Origin: Acidobacteriota bacterium
GTDB taxonomy: Bacteria > Acidobacteriota > UBA6911
Assembly (NCBI GenBank): GCA_963664705.1
Contig: OY761556.1
Coordinates: 4,384,001-4,448,000, forward strand
Length of the DNA: 64,000 bases
Reading direction: 5' to 3'
In this document: one piece after another, positions 3,391 through 32,430 of the stretch
Layout: every line of letters begins with the position of its first letter
How positions within the stretch are numbered: the stretch's first letter is position 1
Position numbers and translations under genes: made by a program
Notes under the pieces: generated by a model
What the model was told of the DNA's origin: nothing
Database searches by the model: none
Seen by the model: the letters and a program-made list of their open reading frames with translations, nothing else

Positions 3391-3420
3391 ATTATTCTTC
3401 CATCCGCAGCAACCTGCGCT

Positions 3421-4131: not shown

Positions 4132-5033
4132 GACCGATGGCTCCTGCGATGACTCAGAAAACTGACCAGTACTCCGGCGGAAATCAACACCACGAATATT
4201 CCAGTCCGCAGCAGATAATCCGTATACCGGCCGGAGGAAAACAGATTGGCCGGCTCCGGGTTTTCCGCTGCCGCCGGAGCCAGAACCAACAATTTTTCCA
4301 ATGGATCCGGCAGTGCAGAACTCCCCGCAAGCACAAGAATCAATGCAGGGATGGCTACAAAGACCACGGCTCCCACCCAGTCGATAAGCCCAAAACGGCC
4401 GGCCCCATCGATTTTCATCAGATCAGGTCGCACTTTGATCAGAAAACTCAGAACCCCGGCCGTCAGCATTCCTTCGATAATCCCGACCACCAGGTGATAG
4501 CCGGTCATGGTGGTCAGGCCGATTCGCAGCGGAATGGCTCCGGACAAACCCAATTGAAGTGCACAGCACGCCGCCGAGATAATCGTGGACAGCCAGCCGG
4601 ACAGGAACCCGGACAGAAGAAGTCGTTTTCCTTGTGCAGCGCCTCCGCTCAAAAGCCTGAAAATGGCATATCCGCTGAAAGAAGTGACAGCCCCGATGTT
4701 GAAAACATTGGCACCCAGCGCCACCAGTCCTCCATCCTGCAGGAAGAGGGCCTGGGCAATGATCACGGTCGCCATGGTCAGGAAACCCGTCATTGGGCCG
4801 AGGAGTATGGCAAGAAGGGCTCCTCCAATCAGGTGCCCCGAGGTTCCACCCAGCACGGGAAAGTTCAACATCTGCGCAGCAAACACAAATGCAGCGAGTA
4901 CACCCATGACGGGGACCATACGGCCGGACAGGTCTACTTTTGCGCGGCGCGCCGCGCAAAGTATTCCCGCAGCGGATATGACATCCATCGATACCGCTAT
5001 CCGGTTGGTCAGAAAGCCATCTGGTATATGCAC
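4128..5033 (-). CDS. cbiM: ECF S component NikM/CbiM fused to a PDGLE-like (NikN) C-terminus; probably nickel uptake
   Basis: MHIPDGFL N-terminus, QMLNFPV, GTSGH and QDGG motifs, plus a C-terminal PDPLE segment. Confidence 0.88.
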   Translation of the reverse strand: MHIPDGFLTNRIAVSMDVISAAGILCAARRAKVDLSGRMVPVMGVLAAFVFAAQMLNFPVLGGTSGHLIGGALLAILLGPMTGFLTMATVIIAQALFLQDGGLVALGANVFNIGAVTSFSGYAIFRLLSGGAAQGKRLLLSGFLSGWLSTIISAACCALQLGLSGAIPLRIGLTTMTGYHLVVGIIEGMLTAGVLSFLIKVRPDLMKIDGAGRFGLIDWVGAVVFVAIPALILVLAGSSALPDPLEKLLVLAPAAAENPEPANLFSSGRYTDYLLRTGIFVVLISAGVLVSFLSHRRSHRS

Positions 5034-15991: not shown

Positions 15992-18130
15992 TTAGATGCC
16001 GTTCATTTGGGCTTTAATCTTGCTGTATTCTTCCTGCACATAGCGCTCGGCCCATTCCTGATTTTCCGCCCTCTGGACGGCTACCGCGCAATACTTATAT
16101 TCCGGAGTCTTGGAAATCGGGTCGACATGGTGAATGGTCAGCTCATTGCAAGCGCCCACCCACCACTGGTATGTCATATACACCGCACCGGCATTAACAC
16201 GCTCGGTAACAGAGGCGCGGCTCATCACTTTGCCGCGTCGCGAGGATACCCAGACCAGTTCCTGATCCTCGATCCCCAACTTCTCTGCATCCGTGTTATG
16301 AATTTGGATATATCCCGGCTCATCGGCCAGGACCTGCAGCGCCGCACAATTCCCCGTCATTGTACGGCAGGAATAATGTCCGACTTCCCGGGCAGTCGAC
16401 AGAATGAGCGGATACTGGCTGTCGGGCTGTTCCAGGGGGGCCCGCCACTCGGCCGCAAACAACTGGCCCTTGCCGCTTGGCGTATTGAAACGGCTGTCCT
16501 TGTACAGGTAAGGAGTCCCGGGATGATCCTCCGTCGGGCATGGCCATTGAATCGTGCCGAGTTTCTCGAGGCGTTCGTAGGTAACTCCCGCGAACGAGGG
16601 GCATAGCGCCCGCATTTCTTCCCAGATTTCGTTGGTGTTGTTGTACTTCATGGGATAGCCCATGGCGCTCGCAAGCAGGGAGATGATGTCCCAATCCGGT
16701 TTGACATCCCCCTTCGGTTCGATCGCCTTGTGGAACCGCTGGAAACCTCTATCGGCCGTCGAATAGGTCCCTTCATGCTCTCCCCACGAAGTCGCCGGCA
16801 GGATCACATCGGCGAACATGGCGGTCTTGTTCATGAAGATATCCTGGACAATCACCAGTTCCAGATTCTGAAGCGCTTCCCGGACACCAGCGGCATCCGG
16901 ATCCGTCTGGACAAGGTCTTCACCGAAGATGTAGTAAGCCTTCAGCTTTCCTTCCTTCACCAGGTGAGGAACCTCAGTCAGCATATAGCCGACTTTCCCC
17001 GGCAACTGCGGAACACCCCAGGCTTTTTCGAACTTGGCGCGGATCTTCTCATCCGTGACCGATTGATAACCGGGGAACACGTTCGGCAGTGCGCCGTGGT
17101 CGCAGGAACCCTGAACATTATTCTGTCCCCGCACTGGCCCGATTCCGACTCCCGGCCGGCCGAAATTGCCGGTCAACAGCGCAAGTCCGGAGAGCCCCTT
17201 GACGACGTCCACCGCCTGCCCGTAATGAGTCACACCCATCCCATACAGAATAAATGCATTCGGGGCCGCGGCGTAAATCCGCATCGCCTTCCGGACCATA
17301 TCCGCCGGAATCCCCGTGATCGACTCCGTATATTCGGGCGTGTACTTCTCAACAAGGGCTTTGTACGCTTCAAATCCTTCGGTGTGCTTGGCCACGTAAT
17401 CCTTGTTGTAAAGCCCTTCCTGGATAAGCACATTCGCGAACGCATTCACCAGGGCCATGTTGGAACCGTTGCGGATCGGCAGCCACAGATCGGCAATGCG
17501 AGCCGACTCTGTCATGCGCGGATCCACGACGATAACCTTGGCGCCCTTCTGCTTTGCATTCACAATGCGACGGGCGACAATCGGATGCGAGTCCGCCGCG
17601 TTGTACCCGAAAATGAAGACACAATTTGTTTCTTCTATTTCCGGAATTGAGTTGGACATTGCCCCATTTCCCAAAGTTGCGGCCAGACCGGCCACGGATG
17701 GGGCATGTCAAACCCGCGCGCAGTGATCGATATTGTTCGTACCGATCACCGCGCGGGCAAATTTTTGCATTACATAGTTGGCTTCATTCCCCGGACCTCT
17801 GGCAGAGCCGGTAAGCATGATCGAATCCGATCCATACTTGTGCTTGATCTCTTGCAGTTTCCCAGCCGTAAATTCGATCGCTTCGTACCAGGATACCTCT
17901 TCAAACTTTGCCTCCCGGCTCCTTCGGAGAAGCGGTTTCTTCAGCCTGGGGGTGAGGCGCTGGGTATCGTTGAGAAAGTCCCAGCCATAGTAGCCCTTCA
18001 GGCAAAGCTCACTCTGGTTGGTGCGCCCCGGTGCGGGCTCCGCGCCCAGGATGGTGCCGTTCTCAACCACCAGGTTGAGCATGCAACCGGCTCCACAGTA
18101 GGGGCATACAGTCAGTATTTTTTCTGCCAT
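15992..18130 (-). CDS. fdhF: Selenocysteine formate dehydrogenase H catalytic subunit (712 aa; Sec TGA at 17708-17710)
   Basis: ORFs 17708-18130 and 15992-17695 are in frame and join as DHCARV-U-HAPSVAGL. N-terminal CPYCGAGC...C, RGQNNVQG and molybdopterin-binding C-terminal domain. Confidence 0.95.
17679..17695 (-). promoter_or_regulatory. SECIS element of fdhF
   Basis: GTGGCC-GGTCT-GGCCGC hairpin 12 nt after the UGA; same position and GGUC loop as the E. coli fdhF SECIS. Confidence 0.88.
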
Positions 18131-18167: not shown

Positions 18168-18698
18168 TTACATTTGAGCAACTGCCGCCTGCTCACGTTT
18201 CTTCTGCAGCTTATCCGAAAGCACTTTTGCGTCGATGGTATACACGGCTTTGGTGGGGCACACTTCGATACACGATGGCCCCTCGGGACGGTGAATACAA
18301 AGATCGCATTTGTACGCTTCCACGGCGGGCGTCGCACTCGGGGCAGGCTGGCGTTCGCTAAGAACGGCTTCCCGAACCACAATCTCCATCGATCCATACG
18401 GGCAGGCGATGACGCAGCTCTTGCAGCCGATACAGCGCGATTGAACAACCTGGACAGAGTTGTGGCTGTGAATGAGGGCACCCGTGGGGCAAACCTTCGC
18501 GCAAGGAGCATCCTCACACTGCCGGCATTGTACCGGGGTACTCACTCTTGAAGTTTTAATAAGCTTGAGCCGGGGCGTAAAACGCGCGGCGGCCAGTTTT
18601 TTCAATGCATCCGGCGCGGAATGGGCAAGCACACAGGCCACCTCGCACGTGCGGCACGCAATGCACTTCACCGGATCCGCAATCACCAGTATGTTCAT
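18168..18698 (-). CDS. hydN: 4x[4Fe-4S] electron-transfer subunit (HydN/HycB-like)
   Basis: CIACRTCEVAC, CRQCEDAPCAKVCP, CIGCKSCVIACP and KCDLC...CIEVCP motifs. Confidence 0.85.
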   Translation of the reverse strand: MNILVIADPVKCIACRTCEVACVLAHSAPDALKKLAAARFTPRLKLIKTSRVSTPVQCRQCEDAPCAKVCPTGALIHSHNSVQVVQSRCIGCKSCVIACPYGSMEIVVREAVLSERQPAPSATPAVEAYKCDLCIHRPEGPSCIEVCPTKAVYTIDAKVLSDKLQKKREQAAVAQM

Positions 18699-18751: not shown

Positions 18752-19234
18752 CTATAGCGGCGGCAGTATGCCCCGCAACAAATCCGCCAGCGCCTGAACA
18801 GACTGCTCGACTTCAGGGCACATCGGTTCACCAAACCCGATGCTGGCCGGCTGAATCCCGATGGCAAACAACTCGGCGCGGCTGTTCTGCTTGATGTATC
18901 GAAAGAACAAATCCACCGTCATCTGATGCGTGGAAACACTGCAACCGGCAATATCATCCATCTCGAGGATGGCGACATCGCCCGGAGCCGCATTGAAATT
19001 GGCGGCATCCAGAAAAACGATCGTGTCGGCGTTCGCGTCCAGGATCCGGCCAAAATAGCTTTCGGGCACCTCTCCGACATCCAGCAGCGCCGCATTCACT
19101 TTCCCCTCCAGAAGGTCGATGAGCGCGGGGCCGGCAGCATCATCTCCGCGAAGAGTATTGCCTGCGCCGATCAGAAGCACGCGGCCTTTTAGTCTCGACC
19201 GCAGTTCCGCATCAATTCCAGGCTGCGCATCCAT
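18752..19234 (-). CDS. hycI: Hydrogenase 3/4 maturation endopeptidase
   Basis: GAGNTLRGDDAAG, PE, FLDAA, STH and GIQP motifs. Confidence 0.88.
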   Translation of the reverse strand: MDAQPGIDAELRSRLKGRVLLIGAGNTLRGDDAAGPALIDLLEGKVNAALLDVGEVPESYFGRILDANADTIVFLDAANFNAAPGDVAILEMDDIAGCSVSTHQMTVDLFFRYIKQNSRAELFAIGIQPASIGFGEPMCPEVEQSVQALADLLRGILPPL

Positions 19235-19242
19235 TCGGTCGT

Positions 19243-19770
19243 TTATTTCAGCACCAGTTCTTCAGAAACGCCGGTCTTGGGAGCCGCATCCACAACCGTA
19301 CCCTCGCCCGCAGGCTGACGATACTGATAGGGCTGAGCTTTTCCCTTCACCAATCCCATGGCAACCGCTGCTCCCCAAAGAATGGCTTCCGGCCTGGGTG
19401 GGCAACCGGGTATGTAGAAATCGACCGGGATAACCTTATCGCAACCGCCGAGAGTGTGATAGGAATCGAACCATACTCCACCGCCCACAGCGCAGGATCC
19501 ACAGGCAATCACAATTTTGGGATTCGGAACGGAGTCATACAGCAGGCGCAAACGCGATTCCGCATTGCGGGCCACCGGCCCGGACACAAGCAGAACATCG
19601 GCATGACGCGGCGACCCTATCAGCCTCAAGCCAAATCGTTCAGCATCATAGTAGGGCGTAAAGGCGTTGATCTCCTCGATGTCGCATCCGTTGCAACCGC
19701 CGGCATTCGCGTGATACACCCACAGCGAACGCTTGAAATATTTTTCCAGGAGCCATTTATAGAGTGACAT
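19243..19770 (-). CDS. hyfI: Group 4 [NiFe]-hydrogenase small subunit (HyfI/HycG, NuoB-like)
   Basis: GGCNGCDIE, SPRHAD, GSCAVGGG and IPGCPPRPE motifs. Confidence 0.9.
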   Translation of the reverse strand: MSLYKWLLEKYFKRSLWVYHANAGGCNGCDIEEINAFTPYYDAERFGLRLIGSPRHADVLLVSGPVARNAESRLRLLYDSVPNPKIVIACGSCAVGGGVWFDSYHTLGGCDKVIPVDFYIPGCPPRPEAILWGAAVAMGLVKGKAQPYQYRQPAGEGTVVDAAPKTGVSEELVLK

Positions 19771-19773
19771 CGC

Positions 19774-21375
19774 TTAACCTCCCGCCACCTGACCGAGCAG
19801 AGCTTTGACGGACAAATCGATGATGTGATTCAAAAACCCGAAGTTAATTCCCGTGAGAACAACCAGCGCCGTCATGACGACGATAACCGCAGTCATGGCA
19901 AACGGGATGCGGCGCGGCGCGGCATCGGCTACCGGGAGCGAAGCTCCATCCACGGCCCTTGCTCCGACAGAAGCTCCGGCAAGTGCCAGCGCAGGCTGTA
20001 CCGCCGCTTCATGGTCATGCGCATGAGCGCCATGATCTTTTTGCATGAACACCATGGCACCGGCACGGATCAATACCGCCAGCGTCAGCAGGCTGGTAAA
20101 CAGAGCAATGCCCAATGGCCACCATAGATGAGCCTGGCCTGCTGCCATGTACAAGGCAAATTTGCTCCAGAAACCGTTCAGCGGCGGCATGCCGCCGATC
20201 CCAAGCGCGCCGATAAAAAAGCAGACCGTCATCAATCGGCTGTGCTTCCGTGTACCCAGTTCCTTCATGTCCGTTGTGCCAAAAGAATATGTCAGCGCAC
20301 CGCACAGGAAGAACAGCATGGCTTTATTGATCCCATGATTGAGCAGATGATAAATCGCGCCATAAAACCCGAGGTAGGATCCGATTCCAAAACCGAAAAT
20401 GATGTACCCGATCTGGCTGACGCTGCTGTAGGCCAGCATGCGTTTCAGATCGGTTTGCTGATAGGCAACAATAATTCCAACCAGCATTGAGATCGCACCC
20501 AGAATGACACCGAACAGTCCCAGGGCACTGTGACCCGGATAGAAAATGGTGACAATTCGGGCAACGGCGTAAATCGCGACCTTGCTGGCAACGCCCGAGA
20601 GAAGCGCCGTAACCGGGATTGGAGATTGTGAGTAGGTATCCGGCAGCCATGCATGAAATGGAACCAGTCCGGCCTTGGAGCCGAATCCGATGATGATCAG
20701 AACGCCGCCGATCAAAACCGCTGTCGTCGGAAGCTGCGTGGCAACCTTGGCGATCTCGGAGATCAACATGGCGTTATGCCCGCCCACAAGCGGAACGGCC
20801 GCTGCGTAAATAACGACGCAGCCCAACAGTCCGATCGTGATGCCGACAGAACAGAGCAGCAGATACTTGTACCCGGCTTCCAGGGATTCCGGTTTCCAGT
20901 AGTAGCTCACCAGTACTGCGGAAGCCAGCGTCGTCGCTTCCACGAGCACATACATCAGAATGAGGTTGTTGTTGACGGTAGCGGCGGTCATGGTACTGAC
21001 AAACACCATACTCCAGGCGAAGTATACCGGCAGCCGCTCAATGGCAATCTTGCCTTCCTTGACCTGGTAGCGCAGGTAGGGGTAGGCGAATATGGTTGTC
21101 ACCCATCCCACGAAAGAGATGATCAACGCCACGAAACCGGCCAGCGGGTCAGCAAGCAGCTGATGACCCAGTGCATTCAACCGGGCTCCATAGTAGAGCT
21201 TGAATACCATCTCTACGGCAATGCCAAAGGTCACGGTCGATCCAACCAGTGCCACTCTTCCGGCCGACGCGGGGAACTTCTTTCCGAGCGCATATTCAGC
21301 CAGCGCTGCAACCGCCGGAACAACGAATAACCAGACTAAAAGCGTCGATTCTATCAACTGGACGTCCCCTTTCAT
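19774..21375 (-). CDS. hyfF: Antiporter-like membrane subunit (HyfF/NuoM-MrpD family)
   Basis: VEATTLAS, EAGYKY, KAGLVPFHAWLPD and DLKRMLAYSS motifs. ATGA overlap with the hyfE stop; an alternative TTG start lies at 21357. Confidence 0.82.
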   Translation of the reverse strand: MKGDVQLIESTLLVWLFVVPAVAALAEYALGKKFPASAGRVALVGSTVTFGIAVEMVFKLYYGARLNALGHQLLADPLAGFVALIISFVGWVTTIFAYPYLRYQVKEGKIAIERLPVYFAWSMVFVSTMTAATVNNNLILMYVLVEATTLASAVLVSYYWKPESLEAGYKYLLLCSVGITIGLLGCVVIYAAAVPLVGGHNAMLISEIAKVATQLPTTAVLIGGVLIIIGFGSKAGLVPFHAWLPDTYSQSPIPVTALLSGVASKVAIYAVARIVTIFYPGHSALGLFGVILGAISMLVGIIVAYQQTDLKRMLAYSSVSQIGYIIFGFGIGSYLGFYGAIYHLLNHGINKAMLFFLCGALTYSFGTTDMKELGTRKHSRLMTVCFFIGALGIGGMPPLNGFWSKFALYMAAGQAHLWWPLGIALFTSLLTLAVLIRAGAMVFMQKDHGAHAHDHEAAVQPALALAGASVGARAVDGASLPVADAAPRRIPFAMTAVIVVMTALVVLTGINFGFLNHIIDLSVKALLGQVAGG

Positions 21376-22046
21376 CCGCGAAGACGCGCAATATTCGATG
21401 TGTCGAGGGAACCGGCCGACCGATAAACCCCGTTGACGATATAAAGAAGCATCAGGACGGAAACCACGACGTCCGTGACTACGCCAATCAAAGCCGTTTC
21501 CGGAATTGAAGGTGCCAGGCTGATCAGCCCCATGTGTACGCCGTTTTCCAACAGGCAAAGGCCGATCACGATCTTAAAGGCATCTCGCCTGGTCAGCAGC
21601 GAGTAGAAACCGATCATCAATACAGCCGCGGCAACGGCGGAATTCATTCGGAAAGGCTCTCCCGCCAGCTCCTTGACAATGATCAGATCCGCATGGTGAT
21701 TGAATGCCCAGGTGAAGGCGAGCAACGCCGCAAGAATTCCGAGAACCTGCGAAGGCAGGATATTCAGCAGCGGCGGAGTTTCCTTGGAATGCACTCGAAT
21801 CACATACCGGCGCAGCAGCCACGGAACAATGATTCCCTTGCTGACAAGCGCCGTGCCGCTCCAGTAGTACAGTGCCGGGTTGTTCAGCGAAAAGGCATAC
21901 AAGGCAAAAATCAACGCAATCAGCACCGACTGGACCTGATAGGTGTGGATGGCTTCCGGCAACATACGCCATTCCACCGCAAGCAGCGAGGTCACAATCA
22001 TAAGCAGGCTGATGTACATGATCGCATAGCTAATCATGTTTGACAC
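21372..22046 (-). CDS. hyfE: Hydrogenase-4 membrane subunit E (NuoK-like)
   Basis: YQVQS, KGIIVP, IGLCLLENG and C-terminal LRG motifs. Confidence 0.85.
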   Translation of the reverse strand: MSNMISYAIMYISLLMIVTSLLAVEWRMLPEAIHTYQVQSVLIALIFALYAFSLNNPALYYWSGTALVSKGIIVPWLLRRYVIRVHSKETPPLLNILPSQVLGILAALLAFTWAFNHHADLIIVKELAGEPFRMNSAVAAAVLMIGFYSLLTRRDAFKIVIGLCLLENGVHMGLISLAPSIPETALIGVVTDVVVSVLMLLYIVNGVYRSAGSLDTSNIARLRG

Positions 22047-22557
22047 TCCTGTCGAGAGCTACTCCGGTCTTCTCCAGCCGGCAGTCCGGGCATAGTTGGA
22101 ACCAATCCGGAATGTTCATCTTTTCCTGCACCCAGGGTGGCGAAAACTCATCGGCCATCTTGGCCAACATACGTTTGGTGATAAACGGATTACCGCATGT
22201 GCTGCAGGGCACCAGTTCCAGGTCCACGGAAACCGTCAGATCCGCGCGGTTGGCGGTGGCATCTTCGAAATCATCGGTGCACTTCGCAGCCTCGACCGGG
22301 CAGATCTCCTGGCAGCGCGCACAATATGTACAACGCGAATAATCCATCGAAACGCACCGCGTCGTTCCCTGGTCCGTGACCTTGATCAGTCGCGGCGGAC
22401 AAACTTCAGCGCACGCACCGCATCCGATGCATTTGGTGCCATCGATATTCGGACGCCCGCGAAAACGCTGCGGTGCCTTCATCGGCTTCAACGGGTAGGG
22501 CAGCGTCACTTTGCCGGCCCGCAGGCAAATCATTACTTCTTTCAGAAGAGGTATCAT
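22030..22557 (-). CDS. hyfH: 2x[4Fe-4S] subunit (HyfH/HycF, NuoI-like)
   Basis: TLPYP...FRGRP, CIGCGACAEVCP, CTYCARCQEICP, then C-terminal CxxC...CPDC. Confidence 0.85.
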   Translation of the reverse strand: MIPLLKEVMICLRAGKVTLPYPLKPMKAPQRFRGRPNIDGTKCIGCGACAEVCPPRLIKVTDQGTTRCVSMDYSRCTYCARCQEICPVEAAKCTDDFEDATANRADLTVSVDLELVPCSTCGNPFITKRMLAKMADEFSPPWVQEKMNIPDWFQLCPDCRLEKTGVALDRSVKHD

Positions 22558-22572
22558 CGGTGTTCCTGAGTT

Positions 22573-23475
22573 CTATAGCCCCATCACGGCCAGGACCAGT
22601 CCTGTCACCGCAACGGCAATCACAATGCCAAAATAACGGATCGCCTGGTTGATCTTGAGGCGCGCGAAAACCTGCGCTACGACTTCAACCAGAATAGCCA
22701 TGATGAGAATTTTCACCAGCGTGATGACGACATCCAAAACCAAGGAGCCCGTCTTGGGCCAGGGGAAGTACATCCCTACCATCAGCGCCATCAGCACGAT
22801 TTGCTTGGAATACATCGACCACTTGAACAGTGCCAGCTTCCGTCCGGAATATTCAATCAGCGGCCCTTCCATGAGTTCCTGTTCGGCTTCCGCCAGGTCA
22901 AACGGCACTTTACCGACCTCAGGCTGAAGAATCAGGAAAAAGGCGATCGCCCCGATAATCAGCGAAATGTCCGGCGGACTCATCACATACCGGTCAATGC
23001 AGTTTGACAGCATGAGCGACTGAGCCTTAATGGACATCGAGATCATCGTTACCGCGAGAACCGGCTCAACCACCATCAGCAGCATTATTTCGCGGTTTGC
23101 GCCGACATAGGCATACGGGCTGCCCGACGCCATGCCCCCAAGGCACAAGGCAATGGGAGCAATGGCCAGGATATATATCAGCACAAGCATGTCGCCCGCA
23201 AAACCCAGCGGAATGATGCCGCCCATCGGCATGAACAACGCCGCCATCAGAGTGGAAGCAAGACAAACGAAAGGCGCGGCATTGAAGATAAAACCATTCA
23301 CACCCTGCTGGTCTTCCTTCACCATGAGCTTGGCAAGGTCGTAATAGGGCTGCATCAGCGGCGGACCTTGCCGCGAGTGAATGCGAGCCCTGACCTTTCG
23401 CAAAATACCGTCCACAAACGGAGCGGCAACCAGAACTATCAAGATATTGAACACGCCGATAGCAACGTGGGTCAC
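22573..23475 (-). CDS. hyfC: Membrane subunit HyfC/HycD (NuoH-like)
   Basis: RARIHSRQGPP..QPYYDLAKL and PFDLAEAEQELMEGPLIEYSG motifs; GTGA overlap with hyfG. Confidence 0.88.
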   Translation of the reverse strand: MTHVAIGVFNILIVLVAAPFVDGILRKVRARIHSRQGPPLMQPYYDLAKLMVKEDQQGVNGFIFNAAPFVCLASTLMAALFMPMGGIIPLGFAGDMLVLIYILAIAPIALCLGGMASGSPYAYVGANREIMLLMVVEPVLAVTMISMSIKAQSLMLSNCIDRYVMSPPDISLIIGAIAFFLILQPEVGKVPFDLAEAEQELMEGPLIEYSGRKLALFKWSMYSKQIVLMALMVGMYFPWPKTGSLVLDVVITLVKILIMAILVEVVAQVFARLKINQAIRYFGIVIAVAVTGLVLAVMGL

Positions 23476-25166
23476 GAGCGTCTCCCTTGCCCGGAATTCC
23501 GTTGACTCATCGCCAACAACTCCTGTTTCGAATAAACCCGGACTTTTTTGGTTCGGGTATCCACGGTAACTACACGCTCCGTACACGAGAAGCACGGATC
23601 AATGCTCCCGACAATAATCGGGAAATCCGCCACTGTCATTTTATCCAGCATATTTGGAATCGATTGGAGCTGTGGATACGTCGACGCCCGAACGCGCCAG
23701 CGATACGGCCGGTTGTCCGGGCCGGTAATGACATAGTGACAGCATTCCCCTCGGGGCGCCTCACATGCCGCAATCCCTTCCTTCCAGGGTGGAATAGGAC
23801 CGACTTCCGCCATCAGGTCGCCCGGAGGCATTTTGTTAATCATCTGCTTGATGAGATCGATGGCAGTAAAGGTCTCTTCTGCACGAACCAGCGTTCGCGC
23901 CCAGATGTCGCATCCTTCATAAACGGCAGGCTTGAAATTCAACTCAGGATACGCAAGATACGGACGGTCTTTCCTGGCATCGATGGCCACACCCGAGGCG
24001 CGGGCCACGGGACCAACCACGCATATCCTTCGTGCATCCTCTTTGCTCAGAGTGCCGACCTTTTCCAGGCGCATCTTCAAGGAATTGTCTTCGACTGCGG
24101 CGGCGACAAGTTCCTTGGTTTCCTTTTCGATCTGCTCGAGAGTCTTGAGTATCTTGTCGCCGGTCTCGCGGTCGATATCGCGCCGCACACCGCCGACCAG
24201 GTTCATTCCATAGGTCTTCCGATTACCCGTAATCTGCTCGGTAAGCCACATTACAGGTTCACGGATGCGCCACGCCTGCATCAATACGGTCTCAAAACCA
24301 AGATAATGAGCAGCCAGCCCCAGCCAAAGCAGATGGCTATGAACGCGCTCCAGTTCCAGCATGATCGCCCGTATATATTTGGCTCGTGGCGGGATCTCGA
24401 TTCCCGCCGCTGATTCCACAGCCATACAGTACGTGGCACTATGCACGAATCCGCAAATGCCGCAAATCCGCTCGGCAATAAATGGAACCTGGTTGTATTC
24501 CATTACGGTCTCGGTCAGCTTCTCGATTCCGCGATGGGCAAAGAATCCCCGATAATCGGAACCGACGATCTGCTCCCCTTCAACATACAGGCGGAAATAC
24601 GCCGGTTCTTCCAGTGTCGGGAAAAACGGGCCTATGCTCAGAATGGTTGCGTTCTTTTCATGCTCTTTGGGCTCGCGCATCGGAGGCTTGATTTCGGTGA
24701 CGCGCGGCGGCCTGAAGTTGTAAGGAACATCTTTGCGCAGCGGGAACACATCTTCCGGCCAGTCATCCGAAACGATCAGACGGCGCGGGTCCGGGTGTCC
24801 ATCCGGCACGATACCCATCATGTCACGCATTTCCCTCTCATGCCAATCGGCACCGGGAATGATATTCGTCAAGGATGGGATGTGCGGATCACCAGGATCC
24901 ACGATTTCCTTCACAGCCAGAAGGACATTGTCCTGATCCAGCGAAAAGATGTACGTAACTTCATAGGTGCCGTTGATTGGACTCTTGTCGGTCCCGGAAG
25001 CCAATACAAGACGGGCCTTTTCCGCATTGAAGAGATAGTCGGCGACCTCCGGCATCTTTTCACGTTTGACAGTCAGGAACAGTCGCGTAGGATCAGGCTG
25101 AGAACTGGAAACCAGCGCACCAGGGCATTTCTCATTAATTGCTGCAGTCAAATCTTGGGAATTCAT
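23472..25166 (-). CDS. hyfG: Group 4 [NiFe]-hydrogenase large subunit (HyfG/HycE; NuoC-NuoD-like fusion)
   Basis: L1 ERICGICGFVH and L2 DPCFSCTER motifs, with a cleavable C-terminal extension. Confidence 0.93.
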   Translation of the reverse strand: MNSQDLTAAINEKCPGALVSSSQPDPTRLFLTVKREKMPEVADYLFNAEKARLVLASGTDKSPINGTYEVTYIFSLDQDNVLLAVKEIVDPGDPHIPSLTNIIPGADWHEREMRDMMGIVPDGHPDPRRLIVSDDWPEDVFPLRKDVPYNFRPPRVTEIKPPMREPKEHEKNATILSIGPFFPTLEEPAYFRLYVEGEQIVGSDYRGFFAHRGIEKLTETVMEYNQVPFIAERICGICGFVHSATYCMAVESAAGIEIPPRAKYIRAIMLELERVHSHLLWLGLAAHYLGFETVLMQAWRIREPVMWLTEQITGNRKTYGMNLVGGVRRDIDRETGDKILKTLEQIEKETKELVAAAVEDNSLKMRLEKVGTLSKEDARRICVVGPVARASGVAIDARKDRPYLAYPELNFKPAVYEGCDIWARTLVRAEETFTAIDLIKQMINKMPPGDLMAEVGPIPPWKEGIAACEAPRGECCHYVITGPDNRPYRWRVRASTYPQLQSIPNMLDKMTVADFPIIVGSIDPCFSCTERVVTVDTRTKKVRVYSKQELLAMSQRNSGQGRRS

Positions 25167-27194
25167 CTATTTCCCTCCCACCCACCAGAAAACGAAGACG
25201 ATCGAAAGGACGAGCCCGATTACCTGCCAAAGCAGATAGAGCTGTGGCACGCCATTGTGAATCCTGCTAAAGGTCCTGCCAATGCGAACAAAGGCTGAAC
25301 CTATTGGGAAGTAAAGCCAGCGATCGAAGTCCAGACTGCGAGCCAATGGCTGTGGGGGGGAAATCTTGGGCCATTTTGGCTTCCAATAAACCGGGTGAAT
25401 CAGATTGCGGAACGGTTTGTAAAAACTGCTCGCGCGATATCTCACCGCTTCATCGGTAACCACCTCGCCGCAATTCCAGATTGAAGCCGGCCGGCTTTCG
25501 ACTTGGACACTCCGATAAATGGCATATGTCACGGCAGCGCACAACAGGAGAGCCAGGAAGATGACTACCGGGCTGACCGCCGTTGTCGTCACACCGCCAA
25601 GACCAAGGGTAATGCCTTTCCAGGGCAAAGCACCGAGAGATCCCTGGACCAGTGATGCATTGGCCATTCCCATCGCGGGCTGCAGCACTCCTATCAGGAG
25701 CGAAACGATAGCGGCGGGAAAGATCCCCAGCAGGAGGCACGCGGCGGCCAGAAGGAACTGCACGATCTCCATCGATTTCGGAGAACCCACAGGGCTGGTT
25801 TTGAACCGCTCAGGCAACGTGCCGAGATAGGCCGTACCCAGGTACTTGATGAAATACGCCAGAGTGACCGTACTCATAAAGATTGCAATGACAGCGTACA
25901 GCGTGTAGACAGAAGCCGGTTTCCCAAGAATGGCGCTCTGATAAATAAGCCATTTGCTGACGAATCCGTTGAGCGGCGGGATCCCTGCAATCGACAGGGC
26001 TCCAATGACAGCACATCCTGCCGTCAGCGGCATCAGTTTTGTCAATCCACCCATTCGATCCAGGTTCCGGGTTCCAGTTTTGAAAATAAGAGAACCGGAA
26101 TTAAAGAAGAGCAGTGATTTGAAACAGGCATGATTCACGATGTGATAGAGGCAGCCTACCAGGGCAATCACTCCAAAGATCGGATGATCCTTCATGAACA
26201 CAAGCCCGAGGCCCAGTCCGAGCAGAATGTATCCGATCTGCCCGATACTGCTTTGTGCAAGCAACCGCTTGCAATCATGCTCGCCCAGCGCACGCAAAGT
26301 GCCGACGGCCATCGACAGAACGCCGAATCCTGCAATGACACTGCCCCATATCATGGAGGCCGATGAAATCGGCAGCATCCACAGGAAAATGCGGAGCAGT
26401 CCATATACGCCCAGCTTGATCATGATGCCGGACAGGAGGGCGCTGACACTTGCCGGAGCCGCCGGGTGCGCGGCCGGCAGCCAGATTCCAAGCGGATACA
26501 TCCCGGCCTTGGTTGAGAATGCAATAAAGAACAGGAACAACAGCATGTGGAGCCCAAATGGACTCGATTGAGCCAGCGATTGAAAGAGCTGCGGCAACTC
26601 GGCAAATCCAAAAGAACCCGCCCGCTGCGACAGAAACATCACGGCGATCATCAGTCCGGCCGATGTCAGGTGCGTCATGAAAAAGTAAATGAAGCCGGCC
26701 GAAAGATTTTCTTTGTTGTCGTTCTCGAAAATAACCAGGAAATAGGACGCAAGCGTCATGACTTCCCAGAAAACCAGGAACCAGAACCAGTCCGACACCG
26801 ATACAACCGCCAACATGCCGGCCATAAATATCGGAAAGGGAAAGTAATACCGGCGCAGCCCTTCATGACGATAGTGGTCCAGGTATCCGATGCCGTAGAG
26901 AGCGGACCCGGTGACCAATATGGAAATCATGGCCAGAAAGATGGCGCTCAATCCGTCAATTTGAAAATTCAGCTGCGCCGTCAGGCCGAGGACCCTCACG
27001 CTCCCGAATCCGAACGCAATTGGTCCGGCAATCAGCGCCTTTGCGGAGATCCATAACATCGCCGCACCCGCGAGAGCGACTCCCGCAAAATTGATACCGC
27101 CGGCCAGATTCCTTCTGTCCGCGGTCAGCAGCGTGAATATGGACGTGGCAACCAGTACAACCATTGCACCGGCAAATAATTCCATTGCAGTCAT
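25167..27194 (-). CDS. hyfB: Antiporter-like subunit HyfB/HycC
   Basis: WEVMTLASY, KAG..P...WLPAAHPAAP, NHACFKSLLF and PPLNGFVSKW motifs. Confidence 0.88.
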   Translation of the reverse strand: MTAMELFAGAMVVLVATSIFTLLTADRRNLAGGINFAGVALAGAAMLWISAKALIAGPIAFGFGSVRVLGLTAQLNFQIDGLSAIFLAMISILVTGSALYGIGYLDHYRHEGLRRYYFPFPIFMAGMLAVVSVSDWFWFLVFWEVMTLASYFLVIFENDNKENLSAGFIYFFMTHLTSAGLMIAVMFLSQRAGSFGFAELPQLFQSLAQSSPFGLHMLLFLFFIAFSTKAGMYPLGIWLPAAHPAAPASVSALLSGIMIKLGVYGLLRIFLWMLPISSASMIWGSVIAGFGVLSMAVGTLRALGEHDCKRLLAQSSIGQIGYILLGLGLGLVFMKDHPIFGVIALVGCLYHIVNHACFKSLLFFNSGSLIFKTGTRNLDRMGGLTKLMPLTAGCAVIGALSIAGIPPLNGFVSKWLIYQSAILGKPASVYTLYAVIAIFMSTVTLAYFIKYLGTAYLGTLPERFKTSPVGSPKSMEIVQFLLAAACLLLGIFPAAIVSLLIGVLQPAMGMANASLVQGSLGALPWKGITLGLGGVTTTAVSPVVIFLALLLCAAVTYAIYRSVQVESRPASIWNCGEVVTDEAVRYRASSFYKPFRNLIHPVYWKPKWPKISPPQPLARSLDFDRWLYFPIGSAFVRIGRTFSRIHNGVPQLYLLWQVIGLVLSIVFVFWWVGGK

Positions 27195-28576
27195 CGTCCC
27201 AACCCCCCGGCCAGCCGATCAATGATTGGCAAGGCAAACACGGTCGAAACCAGGATCAAGCCCATAAGTAGCAACAGGGGTATCGCCATGGTAGCCGGCG
27301 GATCCTGTGCCGCTTCTGCCGCCGGAGTGACGGCGCCAAAGACAATCTTATGCACCACGTGAATAAACCACGCAAACCCGGCCACACTCTCCGCCAACGC
27401 GAGCAACCCGAGCGTCCACCCCCAACTGGAGTGAAGCTGGAATGCTCCTGAAACGATAAAGAACTTACTCCAAAACATGTTGAAAGGAGGGACTCCGCTG
27501 ATTGCAAGCGCGCCGAGCACAAAAGCCAGCGAGGTCAACGGCATCTTCTTTCCCAAACCACTCAACGAGGAAATCTTGCGCGTGCCGGTCGTGAACGAAA
27601 TCGCGCCGACAGCCAGGAACAACAAACTCTTGGTAAAAGAATGACCGACCAGGTGAAGCAATCCGCCGCGCAGGCCGAGATTGGATCCTAGCGCACCAAT
27701 GGACAGCCCGAGAAACATATATCCAAGGTTGGCGATGGTCGAATAGGCAAGCAGCCGTTTCAGGTCATCCTGGAAGAAATAGAGGAAGACGCTAGTCAAC
27801 ATGGTCACGATAGCGATACATCCGAGCAGCAGCGCCACTTTAGGAGGAAAGACCGCCACGCTGACAAGGATTCTGGAAACCAGGTAGACTCCCGCTTTCA
27901 CCATAGCGGCGGCGTGCAGGTATGCGCTCGCCGGAGTCGGCGCGGCCATCGCGGTGGGAAGCCACGTGAAGAATGGGAACTGTGCGGCCTTGGCCATCCC
28001 GGCGATAACCAGGAAGACAATAGCGGTCGTCTTCAATGCCGGCGAAAGCTCATTGATCGCGGAAAAGGCAAAAGACCCGGTATTGATATGGATTAAGATG
28101 ATGGCCGCTTCCAGGAACAATCCCATCGCATGAGTGATCAGCAACGCCTTGTAAGCGGACCGCAGCGCATCCCCATCGCGGTAGAACGCAATCAATCCCC
28201 AGGAACACAATGTCGTCAATTCCCAGAAAATGAAAAGCTGGAAGAAATTGGGCGAAATGACTACGCCGATCATGGCCGCAATGAAAAGCAGCATAAAGAA
28301 GTAATATCGGCCCCGCCCCTGGTCAGACGGATGTTCCCGGTTCCGGGAGCTGATGTAACGCCCGGAATAGAGGACGATTAGAAATCCGCCGATCGTGATC
28401 ACCAGCAGCATCAGGGAAGTCAGCCCGTCAATTCGGACTCCAAACAAAGCTTCCTTGCTTGCCAGCCATGGCAGCGTCCCAAAGTCGCGCGTCCACACGC
28501 CGCCATAGTTTCGTATCACGATGGCGAGCGATCCGATCATTGCTGCCGCAGTCAATAATAAGGGCAACAAAAACAA
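27191..28576 (-). CDS. hyfD: Antiporter-like subunit HyfD (NuoL N-half-like)
   Basis: KAAQFPFFTWLPTAMAAPTPASAYLHAAAMVKAG and DDLKRLLAYST motifs. Confidence 0.87.
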   Translation of the reverse strand: MFLLPLLLTAAAMIGSLAIVIRNYGGVWTRDFGTLPWLASKEALFGVRIDGLTSLMLLVITIGGFLIVLYSGRYISSRNREHPSDQGRGRYYFFMLLFIAAMIGVVISPNFFQLFIFWELTTLCSWGLIAFYRDGDALRSAYKALLITHAMGLFLEAAIILIHINTGSFAFSAINELSPALKTTAIVFLVIAGMAKAAQFPFFTWLPTAMAAPTPASAYLHAAAMVKAGVYLVSRILVSVAVFPPKVALLLGCIAIVTMLTSVFLYFFQDDLKRLLAYSTIANLGYMFLGLSIGALGSNLGLRGGLLHLVGHSFTKSLLFLAVGAISFTTGTRKISSLSGLGKKMPLTSLAFVLGALAISGVPPFNMFWSKFFIVSGAFQLHSSWGWTLGLLALAESVAGFAWFIHVVHKIVFGAVTPAAEAAQDPPATMAIPLLLLMGLILVSTVFALPIIDRLAGGLGR

Positions 28577-28617: not shown

Positions 28618-29916
28618 CTACCGTCCAAGCGGACGGATTCGTTGTGCTACCTGCAGAACATCCTGCTGGGAGAACTCAATTCCCGTAGCCGAGGTCAAAA
28701 GCTCGGCAATAACATCGAACTCAATACCGGCGCCGAGGAATGGACATAAACCTGCCGAATCCAGAATACTCAGCAAATCGCTGCAATTTTCGTCCTGACC
28801 ATCCGCACCGGGAATCCTCGGATAAATCGCAAAGCCTGCCGCCATGCAGGGGCCACGTTCAATGAGTGACGTCCCGTTTCCATTCGGCGTCAGAACCGAT
28901 CCTTCACCGGAAGCCAGCTTGCGCGCTGACTCCAGCGCGTTTCCGTTGGCTCCGATCAATGCCGATTTCGCGGCCGCATAGTCCAATCCCAGATCCACAA
29001 AAGATCTGTATTCCTTCAAGCTTTCGCCGAGTTCTCCCGGTGTACTTCCGGCAAGAAGCGGCAGCAACCCCGTTCCATCGTTCAAAACAAAGGACGAGAA
29101 TGAGGTAGCGCAACCAAAACAGCCACGGGTTCTCGCAGGCTTGAGATCAACATTGGTTGAATCCCATGCAATGCTGTCCGCCATTAAAACCGAATCATGT
29201 TCTCGCGTCCCCTTGACCGCAATCGCCCTGGTTTTCATAAAGGAACGCAATTCATTCGCGGCTTTCAGGAAGCGCTGATAATCCGCAAGCCGGAATCCTT
29301 CCGTTCCGCTCACCACAACGGCCTTAAGGTTCTTGGAACCCATGACTGCGGCCACGCCATTCTTCCCGGCGGCGGAAAAGCTGTCGCCCACAATCACGGA
29401 ACCCCCGACCCCTTTTTCGCCGGCAGGGCCAAGGCACGAAACGACAGCGCCGTTGCGGGTCTCTTTGAGCAGGCATTCGGTGGTTTCGGAAACCGTTTTT
29501 CCGGTCAGATGTGCCGCGGAGCGCAGTTCGCCTTTGCCATTATCGATCCAGAGATAAACAGGCGCATTCGAACGCCCTTCGACAATGAGGCCGTCGAAAC
29601 CGGAGAATTTGAGTTCGGAGCCCCACTTGCCGCTGATGCTCACGGCACCCAAGGCTTCGGCTGTGGGTATTCGCGTGACCACGGTATAGCGGCCGCCGTT
29701 GGGCGCCAATGTGCCGGTCAGAGGGCCGGTAGTAAAGACCAGGTGGTTTCCCGCATCCAGCGGCTCAATGGAAGCCGGTACTTCTTTCTCGTGCAGGTAG
29801 AAACCAAGGCCTCGGCCGCCCAGGTAATCCTTGGCGGTCTCCGGAGCCAGAAGCTCCTTTGTAATGGAACCGTTGCTTAAATTTACGCGCAATAATCGTC
29901 CACGCCAGCCGAACAT
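28618..29916 (-). CDS. Aldehyde:ferredoxin oxidoreductase-like protein, shortened (432 aa) and degenerate
   Basis: MFGWRGRLLRVNLS, YLGGRGL, GPLTGT, GPAGE, VMGSKNLKA, LGLD and DSAGLC motifs; TGATG overlap with the upstream gene. Confidence 0.82.
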   Translation of the reverse strand: MFGWRGRLLRVNLSNGSITKELLAPETAKDYLGGRGLGFYLHEKEVPASIEPLDAGNHLVFTTGPLTGTLAPNGGRYTVVTRIPTAEALGAVSISGKWGSELKFSGFDGLIVEGRSNAPVYLWIDNGKGELRSAAHLTGKTVSETTECLLKETRNGAVVSCLGPAGEKGVGGSVIVGDSFSAAGKNGVAAVMGSKNLKAVVVSGTEGFRLADYQRFLKAANELRSFMKTRAIAVKGTREHDSVLMADSIAWDSTNVDLKPARTRGCFGCATSFSSFVLNDGTGLLPLLAGSTPGELGESLKEYRSFVDLGLDYAAAKSALIGANGNALESARKLASGEGSVLTPNGNGTSLIERGPCMAAGFAIYPRIPGADGQDENCSDLLSILDSAGLCPFLGAGIEFDVIAELLTSATGIEFSQQDVLQVAQRIRPLGR

Positions 29917-30395
29917 CAGCGTCTCGCTCCCGGGGCAATTGCTTTCAGTTTTATGGCGGACAACCGCCGCTTCGTCACATTCACAGTACTCCGCTCGCCA
30001 TACGTTATGGCGCCGGAAGGACAAACAGTGGCACACTGGGGATCCCCGTTGCAGAGGTCGCATTTGAGGATCTTGTTACCGCATGAATCAAAGAAATTGC
30101 CGCCAAACGGGCAAATCTGAATGCACATTCTGCATTTGATGCACTTGGATTGATTGACCAGCCGCGCGCCCGTCTTTTTGTCTTCGGTAATGGCTTTTGC
30201 AGGGCAAATAGCCATACATCCGGCTTCCTCGCACTGCATGCACATGATTGCCGCAGAATGGGTATTTTCATCCCAGGTCTTTACTTCCAGCCTGGCCCTC
30301 GCGGGGTTGAATTCCTCTTCATGGAACAGGGAGCAGGCCAACTCGCAAGAATGGCAGTTGGTGCAGTGTTCCGGAGCTATCATTATTACGCCCAT
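29916..30395 (-). CDS. 4x[4Fe-4S] ferredoxin subunit (AOR-associated type)
   Basis: CTNCHSCELAC, CMQCEEAGCMAICP, CIKCRMCIQICP and KCDLC..DPQCATVCP motifs. Confidence 0.88.
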   Translation of the reverse strand: MGVIMIAPEHCTNCHSCELACSLFHEEEFNPARARLEVKTWDENTHSAAIMCMQCEEAGCMAICPAKAITEDKKTGARLVNQSKCIKCRMCIQICPFGGNFFDSCGNKILKCDLCNGDPQCATVCPSGAITYGERSTVNVTKRRLSAIKLKAIAPGARR

Positions 30396-30442: not shown

Positions 30443-31816
30443 TTATTTACTCAGCCTTCGTTCCTCATACTGCGTCAGGAGTGCCCGGTTCGATTTATCT
30501 CCGGCACCCTTGCCAAAGCTTTCCTGGTAAACTCTTTGAACGGCATCGCTTTGAGTCAAGCGTCCGCTTCCCTTCCCTTCCGGGTACAACTTGCCGCGCT
30601 CATTATAGGTAGCGGTTCTATCTTGAGGCAGAAGTACCTTCGGCTGTCCTCCACCGCTCAGGCATCCCATTGGGCATGCGAGCAGTTCCATGAAGGCAAC
30701 ATCGTGGGTACCCTTTTTCATCGCTTCAAAGAAAGGAACGGCCGCCGTCAGCCCGGTAATGGCAACCGCTTTAATATTGTAGCTGCCGATTTGCACGGAG
30801 GCGGTGCGAACGCCTTCGGTTTCGGTATCGGAAAACTTGACTTCGGCGGCCCCTTCCGATTTGGAAAGAAGCTCCTGCCCGGCACGAATGACAGATGCCG
30901 CGATATCGCCTGGATTGCAGTACACGCTTGAAGCCTCCGGAATCGACGGGAGGTCCGAATCAAATGCCGCCTCCGCAATATTGCTCAGATCGATTCCGGC
31001 ATCCTTAATAAGGTAAGCCAGTTCGCGCGTTGTCAGCACCGCATCCACGTGCCGGACTCCTCCAGCACTCAATTCCGGCCGGTCGGCTTCGAATTTCCTC
31101 GAGGTGCAGGGCCCGACAGATACACTGAATATATCCGCAGGATCGACTTTCAATGCTGCCGCCACCTGTGATTTCAGCAATGCCCCCATAACCATGTTGG
31201 GCGATTTGCATGTGGTGAGGTAATGAAGCAGCTCAGGATGAAATTGCTCAATGAACTTTACCGCAGCCGGGCAAGAGGAGTTGATAACCGGCAGGATTCC
31301 TCCAGCCTGAAGCCGATGGACCAGTTCGTGGGATTGCTCGATAACCGCGATCGCGGCACCCAGCGAAAAGTCATATACCTTCCGGAACCCGATCTTCTTC
31401 AAAGCCGCCACCACACGCCCGGAAGCAATGCTTCCCGGCGCAAGGCCGAAATCCTCGGCCAGCGGACCGCACACGGCAGGGCCGCACTGCGCCAGCGCCA
31501 CGCACTTTGGATCCGCCAGGGCCTTTTTAATTTCCACCATGCGGCAATTATCGTAGGCGGCAAACAGGGGCTCCACGAAACCTTGGGGTAGCGCACGCTG
31601 TTCAATGCGTATCGCGCGAGGCGTCGCGCGTTCCTCAAACACCGTGTCATATCCGTTGCAAACTTGAACGCAGCGCCCGCATGCTACACATCGCTCTTCA
31701 TTAACGGTGTGGGGCTTGTGCCGTTCGCCGCTGATTGCCTCAGACGGGCACGCGGATACACAGTTGCCGCATCCTGTGCACAATTCCTGATCAATTCGGC
31801 TAAATCCCTCAGTCAC
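30443..31816 (-). CDS. [FeFe]-hydrogenase-like protein (FDH-linked group A4/HDCR HydA2 type) with altered H-cluster motifs
   Basis: Two N-terminal CxxCxxCxxxC motifs, EPLFAAY, P1 NSSCPAA, P2 VGPCTSRKFE and P3 ELLACPMGCLSGGGQP. Confidence 0.88.
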   Translation of the reverse strand: MTEGFSRIDQELCTGCGNCVSACPSEAISGERHKPHTVNEERCVACGRCVQVCNGYDTVFEERATPRAIRIEQRALPQGFVEPLFAAYDNCRMVEIKKALADPKCVALAQCGPAVCGPLAEDFGLAPGSIASGRVVAALKKIGFRKVYDFSLGAAIAVIEQSHELVHRLQAGGILPVINSSCPAAVKFIEQFHPELLHYLTTCKSPNMVMGALLKSQVAAALKVDPADIFSVSVGPCTSRKFEADRPELSAGGVRHVDAVLTTRELAYLIKDAGIDLSNIAEAAFDSDLPSIPEASSVYCNPGDIAASVIRAGQELLSKSEGAAEVKFSDTETEGVRTASVQIGSYNIKAVAITGLTAAVPFFEAMKKGTHDVAFMELLACPMGCLSGGGQPKVLLPQDRTATYNERGKLYPEGKGSGRLTQSDAVQRVYQESFGKGAGDKSNRALLTQYEERRLSK

Positions 31817-31836: not shown

Positions 31837-32430
31837 TTAAACCCCTAAATTGACTCCCGACTGCAACAGCAGATCAAGAGCCGCCTCGGTATTTTTCCGG
31901 CTCTTTTCCTTGGCCGGGTTCACCAGAGCCAGCGCCTTCTCCGGACAGGTTTCAACGCAAGCAGGCCCATTGGATCGATGAATGCACAAATCACAATTGC
32001 TCGCCCGGTGAAACCGACGGGTCTTCCATTCTTCCGGCGTTGGCTTATCCCCGGGGAAAATGGGCATGGTCCCGGCAGGCAACGGAACAAACTCGATCGC
32101 ACCGAACGGACATGCCATCAGGCAAAGCTTGCACCCGACACACCGCGTGGTATCCACAACGGTCCGACCGTTGACCCTCGAAATGGCGGACATCTGGCAG
32201 ACGTTGCGGCAGGGAGCATCCACGCAGTGATGGCATTGCACCGGCGCCGAGAGGTCGTCCGTAACCATGACGAAAAGCCTCGGGATAAAAACGCCGGCCG
32301 CTGCGCCGGCTGTATTCGCCTTTGATTCGGCATGCACCACAGCGCATGCCACTTCACAGGTGCGGCATCCGATGCACTTTTCAGCATCACTCTGAACGAA
32401 AGGGCTGAACTGTTCCGTGCTCAATTTCAC
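31837..32430 (-). CDS. 4x[4Fe-4S] electron-transfer subunit (HycB/HyfA-like)
   Basis: CIGCRTCEVAC, CHHCVDAPCRNVC, CVGCKLCLMACP and CDLC...CVETCP motifs. Confidence 0.88.
   Translation of the reverse strand: MKLSTEQFSPFVQSDAEKCIGCRTCEVACAVVHAESKANTAGAAAGVFIPRLFVMVTDDLSAPVQCHHCVDAPCRNVCQMSAISRVNGRTVVDTTRCVGCKLCLMACPFGAIEFVPLPAGTMPIFPGDKPTPEEWKTRRFHRASNCDLCIHRSNGPACVETCPEKALALVNPAKEKSRKNTEAALDLLLQSGVNLGV

Follow-up and report, generated by a model that had tools for sequence, protein, structure and literature searches.

The open reading frame at 30443..31816, on the minus strand of the 64,000-nucleotide stretch of Acidobacteriota DNA analysed here (the window), encodes a protein resembling the [FeFe]-hydrogenase subunit HydA2, with all its [4Fe-4S] cysteines but with several residues of the di-iron pocket replaced. 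The question is whether such a protein still handles H2 or has become something else. The preliminary description proposed a "pseudo-hydrogenase". This proposal stands on the substitutions shared among homologs and on a dN/dS well below 1, but its argument from hydEFG does not hold for this genome, and four of the changes it listed also occur in TmHydS, which binds [2Fe]H. As read from the genes, the protein (hereafter pseudo-HydA2) is probably a non-catalytic subunit with three [4Fe-4S] clusters and no di-iron centre, which would play a structural and electron-holding role in a membrane-bound formate hydrogenlyase.

Sequence, fold and lineage of pseudo-HydA2

30443..31816, minus strand: HydA2-derived probable pseudo-hydrogenase, 457 aa, with a 2x[4Fe-4S] domain, an H-domain, four cubane cysteines and a remodelled 2Fe pocket

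The minus-strand frame is open over 457 codons without a break. Across it, not one letter differs in contigs from runs X2 and X3, which come from a single sample (possibly the assembly's source), and this identity, together with a pattern common to 72 homologs, rules out a sequencing artefact as the cause of the motif changes. Two Fer4 motifs and PF02906 are the only Pfam families matched, with no PAS or other output domain and no C-terminal Fe-S domain among them. The protein's score against the group A model TIGR02512 is 295 bits, under the cut-off of 406. HydA2 of the T. kivui HDCR is the closest solved protein by sequence (7qv7_D, E 7e-124) and the top Foldseek match (TM 0.87) of the AlphaFold model (pLDDT 88.7), which bears out the earlier assignment to HydA2-like proteins of group A4. 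The two proteins share their architecture, a length of about 460 aa, their fold and a position in the A4 tree; pseudo-HydA2 differs in having replaced the 2Fe pocket and the proton-transfer cysteine.

The P1 motif reads INSSCPAAV, in which S181 replaces the proton-transfer cysteine (C299) and C182 is kept. P2 is SVGPCTSRKFE, and P3 is ELLACPMGC, with L379 at the place of M497. AAIA stands for ADLT, and VYCNPGDI for IFGxTGGV. Direct alignment with residues 347-366 of CpI pairs G235 with M353, C237 with C355, and R240 with K358, which rules out a register error in P2; the other CpI numbers, transferred by motif, are presumed equivalents. The catalytic motif residues of group A4 (C299, M353, K358, and M497) are missing, their places being taken by S181, G235, R240, and L379, and the cubane cysteines 182/237/381/385 and all eight F-cluster cysteines are present. 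Every motif change listed in the preliminary description was confirmed by reading and by alignment with CpI and HydA2, as were the full-length frame, the four [4Fe-4S]H cysteines and both F-clusters.

A homolog search scored 7997 proteins, of which 1125 reach E <= 1e-50. The best 120 of these 1125, used for the motif counts, split into 73 degenerate proteins (query included) and 47 intact ones. The split is recovered with support of 100 in a tree from which the motif columns are removed, so the clade is not an artefact of those columns. A 70-row tree including 13 other group A proteins (quick search, midpoint root, no bootstrap) unites the 29 degenerate rows selected for it on a single branch of length 0.7, nested inside A4 (SH-aLRT 100). 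The homologs do share the substitutions, as the preliminary description had asked, and the loss of the motifs is confirmed as a clade-wide trait and not a one-off mutant. The protein descends from group A4 and fails its catalytic motifs, which makes it a probable pseudo-HydA2, encoded in an extended formate hydrogenlyase operon.

Each of the four cubane cysteines is kept in 73/73 members of the clade. C299 is found in 0/73, against 47/47 of the intact A4 enzymes, and is replaced by S or A (70/3). K358 remains in 1/73 (R in 61, H in 11) against 47/47, M353 in 1/73 (otherwise G, A or V) against 46/47, D273 in 0/73 against 47/47, and A230 in 0/72 (replaced by G, D or Q) against 46/47. G422 is kept in 5/73 (D in 64) and E279 in 35/73, both being present in 47/47 intact enzymes. 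The C-terminal RKSH segment is gone from the degenerate clade. All six other PF02906 proteins of the same genome keep K358, as do 139 of the 148 representatives aligned in a wider profile search, where three of the nine exceptions carry the degenerate-clade motifs. The other six (P0207, P0215, P0243, P0265, P0298, and P0323) are group A-like proteins with motifs unlike those of the clade, and have probably lost K358 separately.

Intact A4 enzymes have 208 positions with conservation of 90% or more; in the degenerate clade, 88 of these remain at that level, and at 38 the residue has been replaced almost throughout. Against this background it is hardly credible that the protein is an ordinary A4 hydrogenase with full activity in an [FeFe]/[NiFe] hybrid complex, although the fold and cluster cysteines are intact and active hybrids are described in archaea (PMC11216029); prototypical enzymes are reported to be inactivated or severely impaired when their C299 equivalent is substituted (PMC10055695).

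The sensory enzymes TmHydS (group C) and TamHydS (group D) offer a closer comparison, as they too have lost C299, M353, and M497. TmHydS carries Ala, Gly, Tyr and Ser at C299, M353, F417, and M497 (A131, G177, Y223, and S267), yet is described as binding [2Fe]H and being slowly active (PMC10055695), and TamHydS is described as similar in this respect (PMC8163306). Pseudo-HydA2 parallels these residues with S181, G235, Y299, and L379, the tyrosine at F417 being found in 62/73 clade members. Since TmHydS has the same four changes and still binds [2Fe]H (PMC10055695), they do not by themselves prove a dead site, and they weigh against the preferred reading, as does the presence of hydEFG in this genome (see below). 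The protein might be a slow HydS-like enzyme or an H2 sensor, which would accept [2Fe]H where maturases exist and tune or gate electron flow; the equivalents of S323, P324, E282, and R286 (S205, P206, E164, and R168), largely retained in the clade, fit this idea. We regard it as the chief alternative, though an unlikely one. Sensory enzymes keep the residues that hydrogen-bond the cofactor, according to PMC10055695, yet K358, which contacts the distal CN (PMC10147833), is lost in 72/73 clade members. Unlike TmHydS and TamHydS, pseudo-HydA2 lies within group A4 and has neither a PAS nor a C-terminal Fe-S domain, and the conserved gene order includes no regulator in the 8 genome loci and 31 metagenome loci described below. 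Discriminating weight lies with the losses of K358, D273, A230, G422, and the C-terminal RKSH segment.

The same genome encodes three HydS-type H-domain proteins (G000:C1:144028-144708, 1740925-1741605, and 1610169-1610852); by reading, one carries a chemoreceptor tail, and the other two, located next to group A enzymes, are fusions with histidine-kinase domains.

New residues are fixed in the pocket of the clade: I178 and N443 in 73/73, D440 and R/H240 in 72/73, S181 in 70/73, N179 in 67/73, D304 in 64/73, and C300 in 62/73. This is more than simple decay predicts and counts against the preferred reading. It would suit a repurposed pocket, holding another ligand or metal, or a labile cluster used to assemble the Fe-S subunits of the operon in a Nar1-like manner, and loss of the RKSH segment could expose the cubane. 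Such a role seems improbable, since C300 also occurs in 6/47 intact A4 enzymes, and fixation may reflect shared ancestry and packing. Nar1/IOP1, to which the preliminary description compared the protein, has a hydrogenase fold without H2 catalysis; it serves Fe-S assembly in eukaryotes and has no link to HDCR or Hyf. It is named hydrogenase-related in PMC4967309.

The operon and its AOR-like and polyferredoxin subunits

The pseudo-HydA2 gene is the second of 15 co-oriented genes running from 32430 to 15992, in the order hycB4-like, pseudo-hydA2, aorA-like, short AOR, hyfD, B, G, C, H, E, F, I, protease, hydN, and fdhF. Besides pseudo-HydA2, the features are:

31837..32430, minus strand: HycB4-like 4x[4Fe-4S] subunit, first operon gene; best PDB match 7qv7_B (E 2e-43)
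29916..30395, minus strand: AorA/WorS-like 4x[4Fe-4S] subunit with a C-terminal segment; best PDB matches 8c0z_C (E 1.5e-32) and 9mqx_E
28618..29916, minus strand: shortened AOR-like protein, probable pseudo-enzyme; 432 aa against about 600, catalytic motifs replaced
27191..28576, minus strand: HyfD (antiporter-like); NF005097 at 551 bits, over cut-off
25167..27194, minus strand: HyfB-like (antiporter-like); best match NF005086, below cut-off
23472..25166, minus strand: group 4 [NiFe]-hydrogenase large subunit (HyfG/HycE type); ERICGICGFVH and DPCFSCTER intact
19243..23595 (ORF limits, several true starts lying downstream of the listed ORF starts), minus strand: HyfC-, HyfH-, HyfE-, HyfF-, and HyfI-like genes; best Pfam/NCBIfam matches, most under equivalog cut-offs
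18752..19234, minus strand: hydrogenase maturation protease (HycI-like); TIGR00072 over cut-off
18168..18698, minus strand: HydN/HycB3-like 4x[4Fe-4S] subunit, from family matches
15992..18130, minus strand: FdhF-type formate dehydrogenase; codon 141 is an in-frame TGA (CARV*H), taken to encode selenocysteine

The operon displays the features of Hyf: group 4 [NiFe] large-subunit motifs, a small subunit, three antiporter-like subunits and FdhF. The large-subunit motifs are intact in 13/13 aligned loci, in agreement with the earlier view that a [NiFe] module performs the H2 chemistry, and hypD is encoded elsewhere in the genome, outside the operon. A hairpin lies after the in-frame TGA of fdhF, the TGA is also found in 5/5 relatives read, and a tRNA-SeC is predicted in the genome. 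ARAGORN makes three such calls (G000:C1:1625651, 3078215, and 6559014), of which one, short at 72 bases, may be spurious. A promoter scan stays at chance level (11 against 11.2).

A scan of genomes yields at least 79 loci, of which 60 (L017-L076) were examined, those left out (L077-L095) being mostly weak or partial matches. Eight of the 60 bear the degenerate motifs; all eight are titled Acidobacteriota and have the same gene order. Among 32 metagenome loci, some of them near-copies, 31 are clade members, and the same neighbours surround the gene in 31/31 as far as the contigs reach. The run onward to hydN and fdhF was read in five relatives. Intact A4 genes lie mostly in HDCR-type clusters, but four of them (L021, L023, L037, and L050, with TSCCP and PCxxK) adjoin a group 4 [NiFe] operon. 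This arrangement is a possible living model of the ancestral state; in the quick tree these four enzymes are not resolved as sister of the degenerate clade.

Variations on this order are observed in some loci. In L148, a gene for a formate/nitrite transporter (PF01226, 10883-11917) separates pseudo-hydA2 from the aorA-like gene, and a similar 1-kb gap occupies that place in L035, L137, L140, and L142-L146. A CO dehydrogenase (PF03063) cluster faces the operon end in two maturase-less genomes (L181:6079-11345 and L183:760-6515); it also encodes a pterin-binding protein and a ParA/CooC-type ATPase. At L181:3093-4145 (G404), hydN runs in frame into fdhF, which is either a real fusion or an assembly error.

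Two known systems meet in this operon. With the T. kivui HDCR, composed of FdhF-HycB3-HycB4-HydA2 (7QV7; PMC6288185, PMC13397495), it has in common the linkage to HycB4-, HycB3/HydN-, and FdhF-like genes; it departs from HDCR through the insertion of an AorAB-like pair and a membrane [NiFe] Hyf module. With formate hydrogenlyase-2 (Hyf) it shares a Sec-FdhF, HydN, three antiporter-like subunits, intact [NiFe] motifs and a maturation protease, but possesses four extra genes at its front, encoding the HycB4-like, pseudo-HydA2, AorA-like and shortened AOR proteins. An fdhF/hyf operon has been noted in a peat Acidobacterium, in accounts where no mention of these four genes was found (bioRxiv 10.1101/197269; PMC9599518). 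The archaeal group F/G hybrids also unite [FeFe]-type and [NiFe] catalytic genes in one conserved cluster; they are presented as active and pair with group 3 [NiFe] enzymes, group F being fused to the small subunit (PMC11216029), in contrast to the unfused membrane group 4 partner found here.

A second degenerate enzyme, absent from the preliminary description, is encoded two genes downstream of pseudo-HydA2. The 432-residue product of 28618-29916 matches WorL and AOR best, and is about 170 aa shorter than AorB. Compared with one full-length AOR (L075), it lacks the Glu of GPEYET, the His of GGCH, the Arg of AAGRSG and the third Cys of CxxCxxxC; the Glu and His are the proposed catalytic residues of AOR (PMC10413684). 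C266, C269, C357, and C391 are invariant in 26/26 short AOR sequences. From these features the protein is a probable pseudo-enzyme. Its shortness alone is not unique to this operon, because AOR-like clusters of 424-461 aa are found elsewhere too. The genome holds 16 further AOR-family tblastn matches at E <= 1e-15, an unusually large number of tungsten-type oxidoreductase paralogs.

The two genes following pseudo-hydA2 match AorA/WorS and AorB/WorL best, subunits of the nanowires AorABC (8C0Z) and WorABCSL (9MQX), and a conserved C-terminal segment, which would correspond to the one that drives filament formation in those systems, is retained. The AorB-like protein has lost the proposed catalytic Glu/His, and neither AorC nor WorABC is encoded in the operon. 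Such C-terminal helices drive filament formation in HDCR, AOR, and WOR, as described in PMC10413684 and PMC12318220. In the HycB4-like subunit, the C-terminal segment KSRKNTEAAL aligns with KARNKEAAL of HycB4, and E182, A183, A184, and L187 are invariant in 23/23. In the AorA-like subunit, 16 cysteines, R143, and K151 are invariant in 27/27, and the C-terminal segment aligns with that of AorA. The 7QV7 chains comprise six HydA2 and six HycB4 for two HycB3, which suggests that HydA2 and HycB4 repeat together in HDCR.

A more daring reading, which we offer tentatively and by analogy, is that the operon might encode a chimeric, catalytically blank protein nanowire. Its core would consist of the HycB4 and AorA subunits of two known filament-forming enzymes with their polymerising tails, the stripped HydA2 and AorB decorations would persist as an Fe-S sheath and electron store, and the wire would link Sec-FdhF to the membrane [NiFe] hydrogenase; the long-puzzling R. 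rubrum HydA (see below) would be one such sheath subunit.

Selection, distribution and maturases

The pseudo-HydA2 gene is under purifying, somewhat relaxed selection. IQ-TREE GY puts omega at 0.151 across 27 genes of the clade, against 0.098 across 50 genes of intact A4 enzymes; codon alignments leave out L019, the neighbouring genes of which are frameshifted, and near-identical rows. For other operon genes, omega is 0.176 (short AOR), 0.096 and 0.078 (the two polyferredoxins), 0.059 (hyfG), and 0.062 (hyfD). Nei-Gojobori values range from 0.11 to 0.31 in 39 pairs with unsaturated dS (0.05-1.2), and a fit meant to fix omega at 1, the omega value of which is absent from the program output, is 1717 log units worse. 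The dN/dS below 1 that the preliminary description had set as a check was thus observed.

That the gene is a slowly decaying relic riding with a useful hyf operon could be argued from an omega two to three times that of hyfG and hyfD, which rises to 0.2-0.3 in one sub-branch, and from its patchy occurrence: at E <= 1e-100 it is matched in 0/400 sampled genomes of the phylum, and it is present in 6/50 other genomes of the order. This reading is very improbable. Omega is far below 1, the frame is intact at 44-85% identity with the exception of one split copy among 31 metagenome loci, and 57 columns are invariant among 50 sequences. Where HyfG is at least 81% identical, in eight genomes, seven also hold the pseudo-HydA2 gene; the eighth, G421, shows no match to it and is uninformative, its contig ending upstream of hyfB. 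Loci being related, counts across clade members are not independent.

The preliminary description relied on the lack of hydEFG in the window and called for a genome-wide search. The window indeed contains none, but hydF, hydG, and two hydE-family genes, all over TIGRFAM cut-offs, are encoded elsewhere in the genome, so that the organism cannot be said to lack maturases and the argument fails for it. They coexist there with three group A enzymes with intact P2/P3 motifs, two of which have TSCSP, like A. woodii HydA1. The argument does hold for 4/8 relatives, in which neither an intact group A enzyme nor any of hydE, hydF and hydG was found; in three of these four, pseudo-HydA2 is the only PF02906 match. 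These four genomes are MAGs, with a completeness figure for one (97%). The other 4/8 have hydF and hydE, a point in favour of a HydS-like enzyme, along with an intact group A enzyme in every case; hydG is whole in two, in two pieces in one, and not found in one. Maturases track the intact enzymes rather than the pseudo-HydA2 gene, since intact group A enzymes occur only in relatives with maturases. Their absence is weak evidence by itself, because active [FeFe] enzymes come from organisms without them: only 5/130 archaeal genomes with [FeFe] genes have a full set, and yet enzymes from such genomes are active after artificial maturation, according to PMC11216029.

Proposed function and R. rubrum HydA

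Established facts are the clade-wide replacement of the pocket, the retention of 12 cluster cysteines, purifying selection, the fixed gene order and the persistence of the gene without maturases. A non-catalytic subunit of a formate hydrogenlyase would accommodate them as follows. Sec-FdhF would oxidise formate, and electrons would pass by way of HydN and both polyferredoxins (HycB4-like and AorA-like), then through HyfH/HyfI to the [NiFe] site of HyfG, where H2 would be made. Pseudo-HydA2 would keep the docking that HydA2 has in HDCR, here on the HycB4-like subunit, and would stabilise and buffer the Fe-S chain between Sec-FdhF and the membrane [NiFe] hydrogenase. As its cluster chain would end blind without [2Fe]H, a clamp combined with an electron reservoir or a ferredoxin entry point is a better candidate than a through-relay. 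The likely history starts with the union of an HDCR and a Hyf module, after which the H2 chemistry passed to the [NiFe] site.

R. rubrum HydA (ABC21115.1) belongs to the degenerate clade, in which it forms a long branch with 45% identity. It has the same kind of substitutions as pseudo-HydA2 (NSSCP, ACLSHKAE), and its other matches at E <= 1e-100, 58 proteins, are all members of the clade. We take ABC21115.1 to be Rru_A0310, the gene of two reports that bear against inactivity: by its title, a study by Kim et al. in 2008 reportedly credited the Fe-only hydrogenase of R. rubrum with H2 production, and RrHydA is said to have been matured in E. coli with foreign HydEFG in 2013. The latter would favour a slow HydS-like enzyme. 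R. rubrum is described as lacking maturases, and its HydA as probably inactive or of a different role, in PMC4967309, in the available text of which no mention of its pocket residues was found. Rru_A0314, A0320, and A0321 are annotated as NADH dehydrogenases (PMC11268599), and the published supplements searched yielded nothing on Rru_A0309-0314; PMC13063691 and PMC4334135 likewise offered no pertinent information. A plasmid search returned eight records at 27-40% identity.

No description of the degenerate clade, the operon or the four-gene module was found in the literature searched, outside of which lie most subscription journals; Table S2j of bioRxiv 10.1101/197269 may list the genes. If the preferred reading is right, this is a bacterial [FeFe]-hydrogenase kept under selection after loss of its catalytic site, within a formate hydrogenlyase. 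It would also explain R. rubrum HydA in a way open to testing, since that host is cultured and tractable, and the clade provides a natural test of the second-sphere residues, K358 foremost, needed for [2Fe]H retention. Gene surveys may count its members as H2 producers, because sources name them iron-only hydrogenase or HndD. Two stripped enzymes of two nanowire systems in one operon would, if the assignment of both is right, part wire function from the catalysts.

Two further features of the window may be mentioned. A chemoreceptor with a C-terminal hemerythrin domain is encoded at 56221-58278, within a che cluster. At 2650-5033, 11 kb from the operon, lies what we take, by reading, to be a CbiM/Q/O-type cobalt or nickel transporter.
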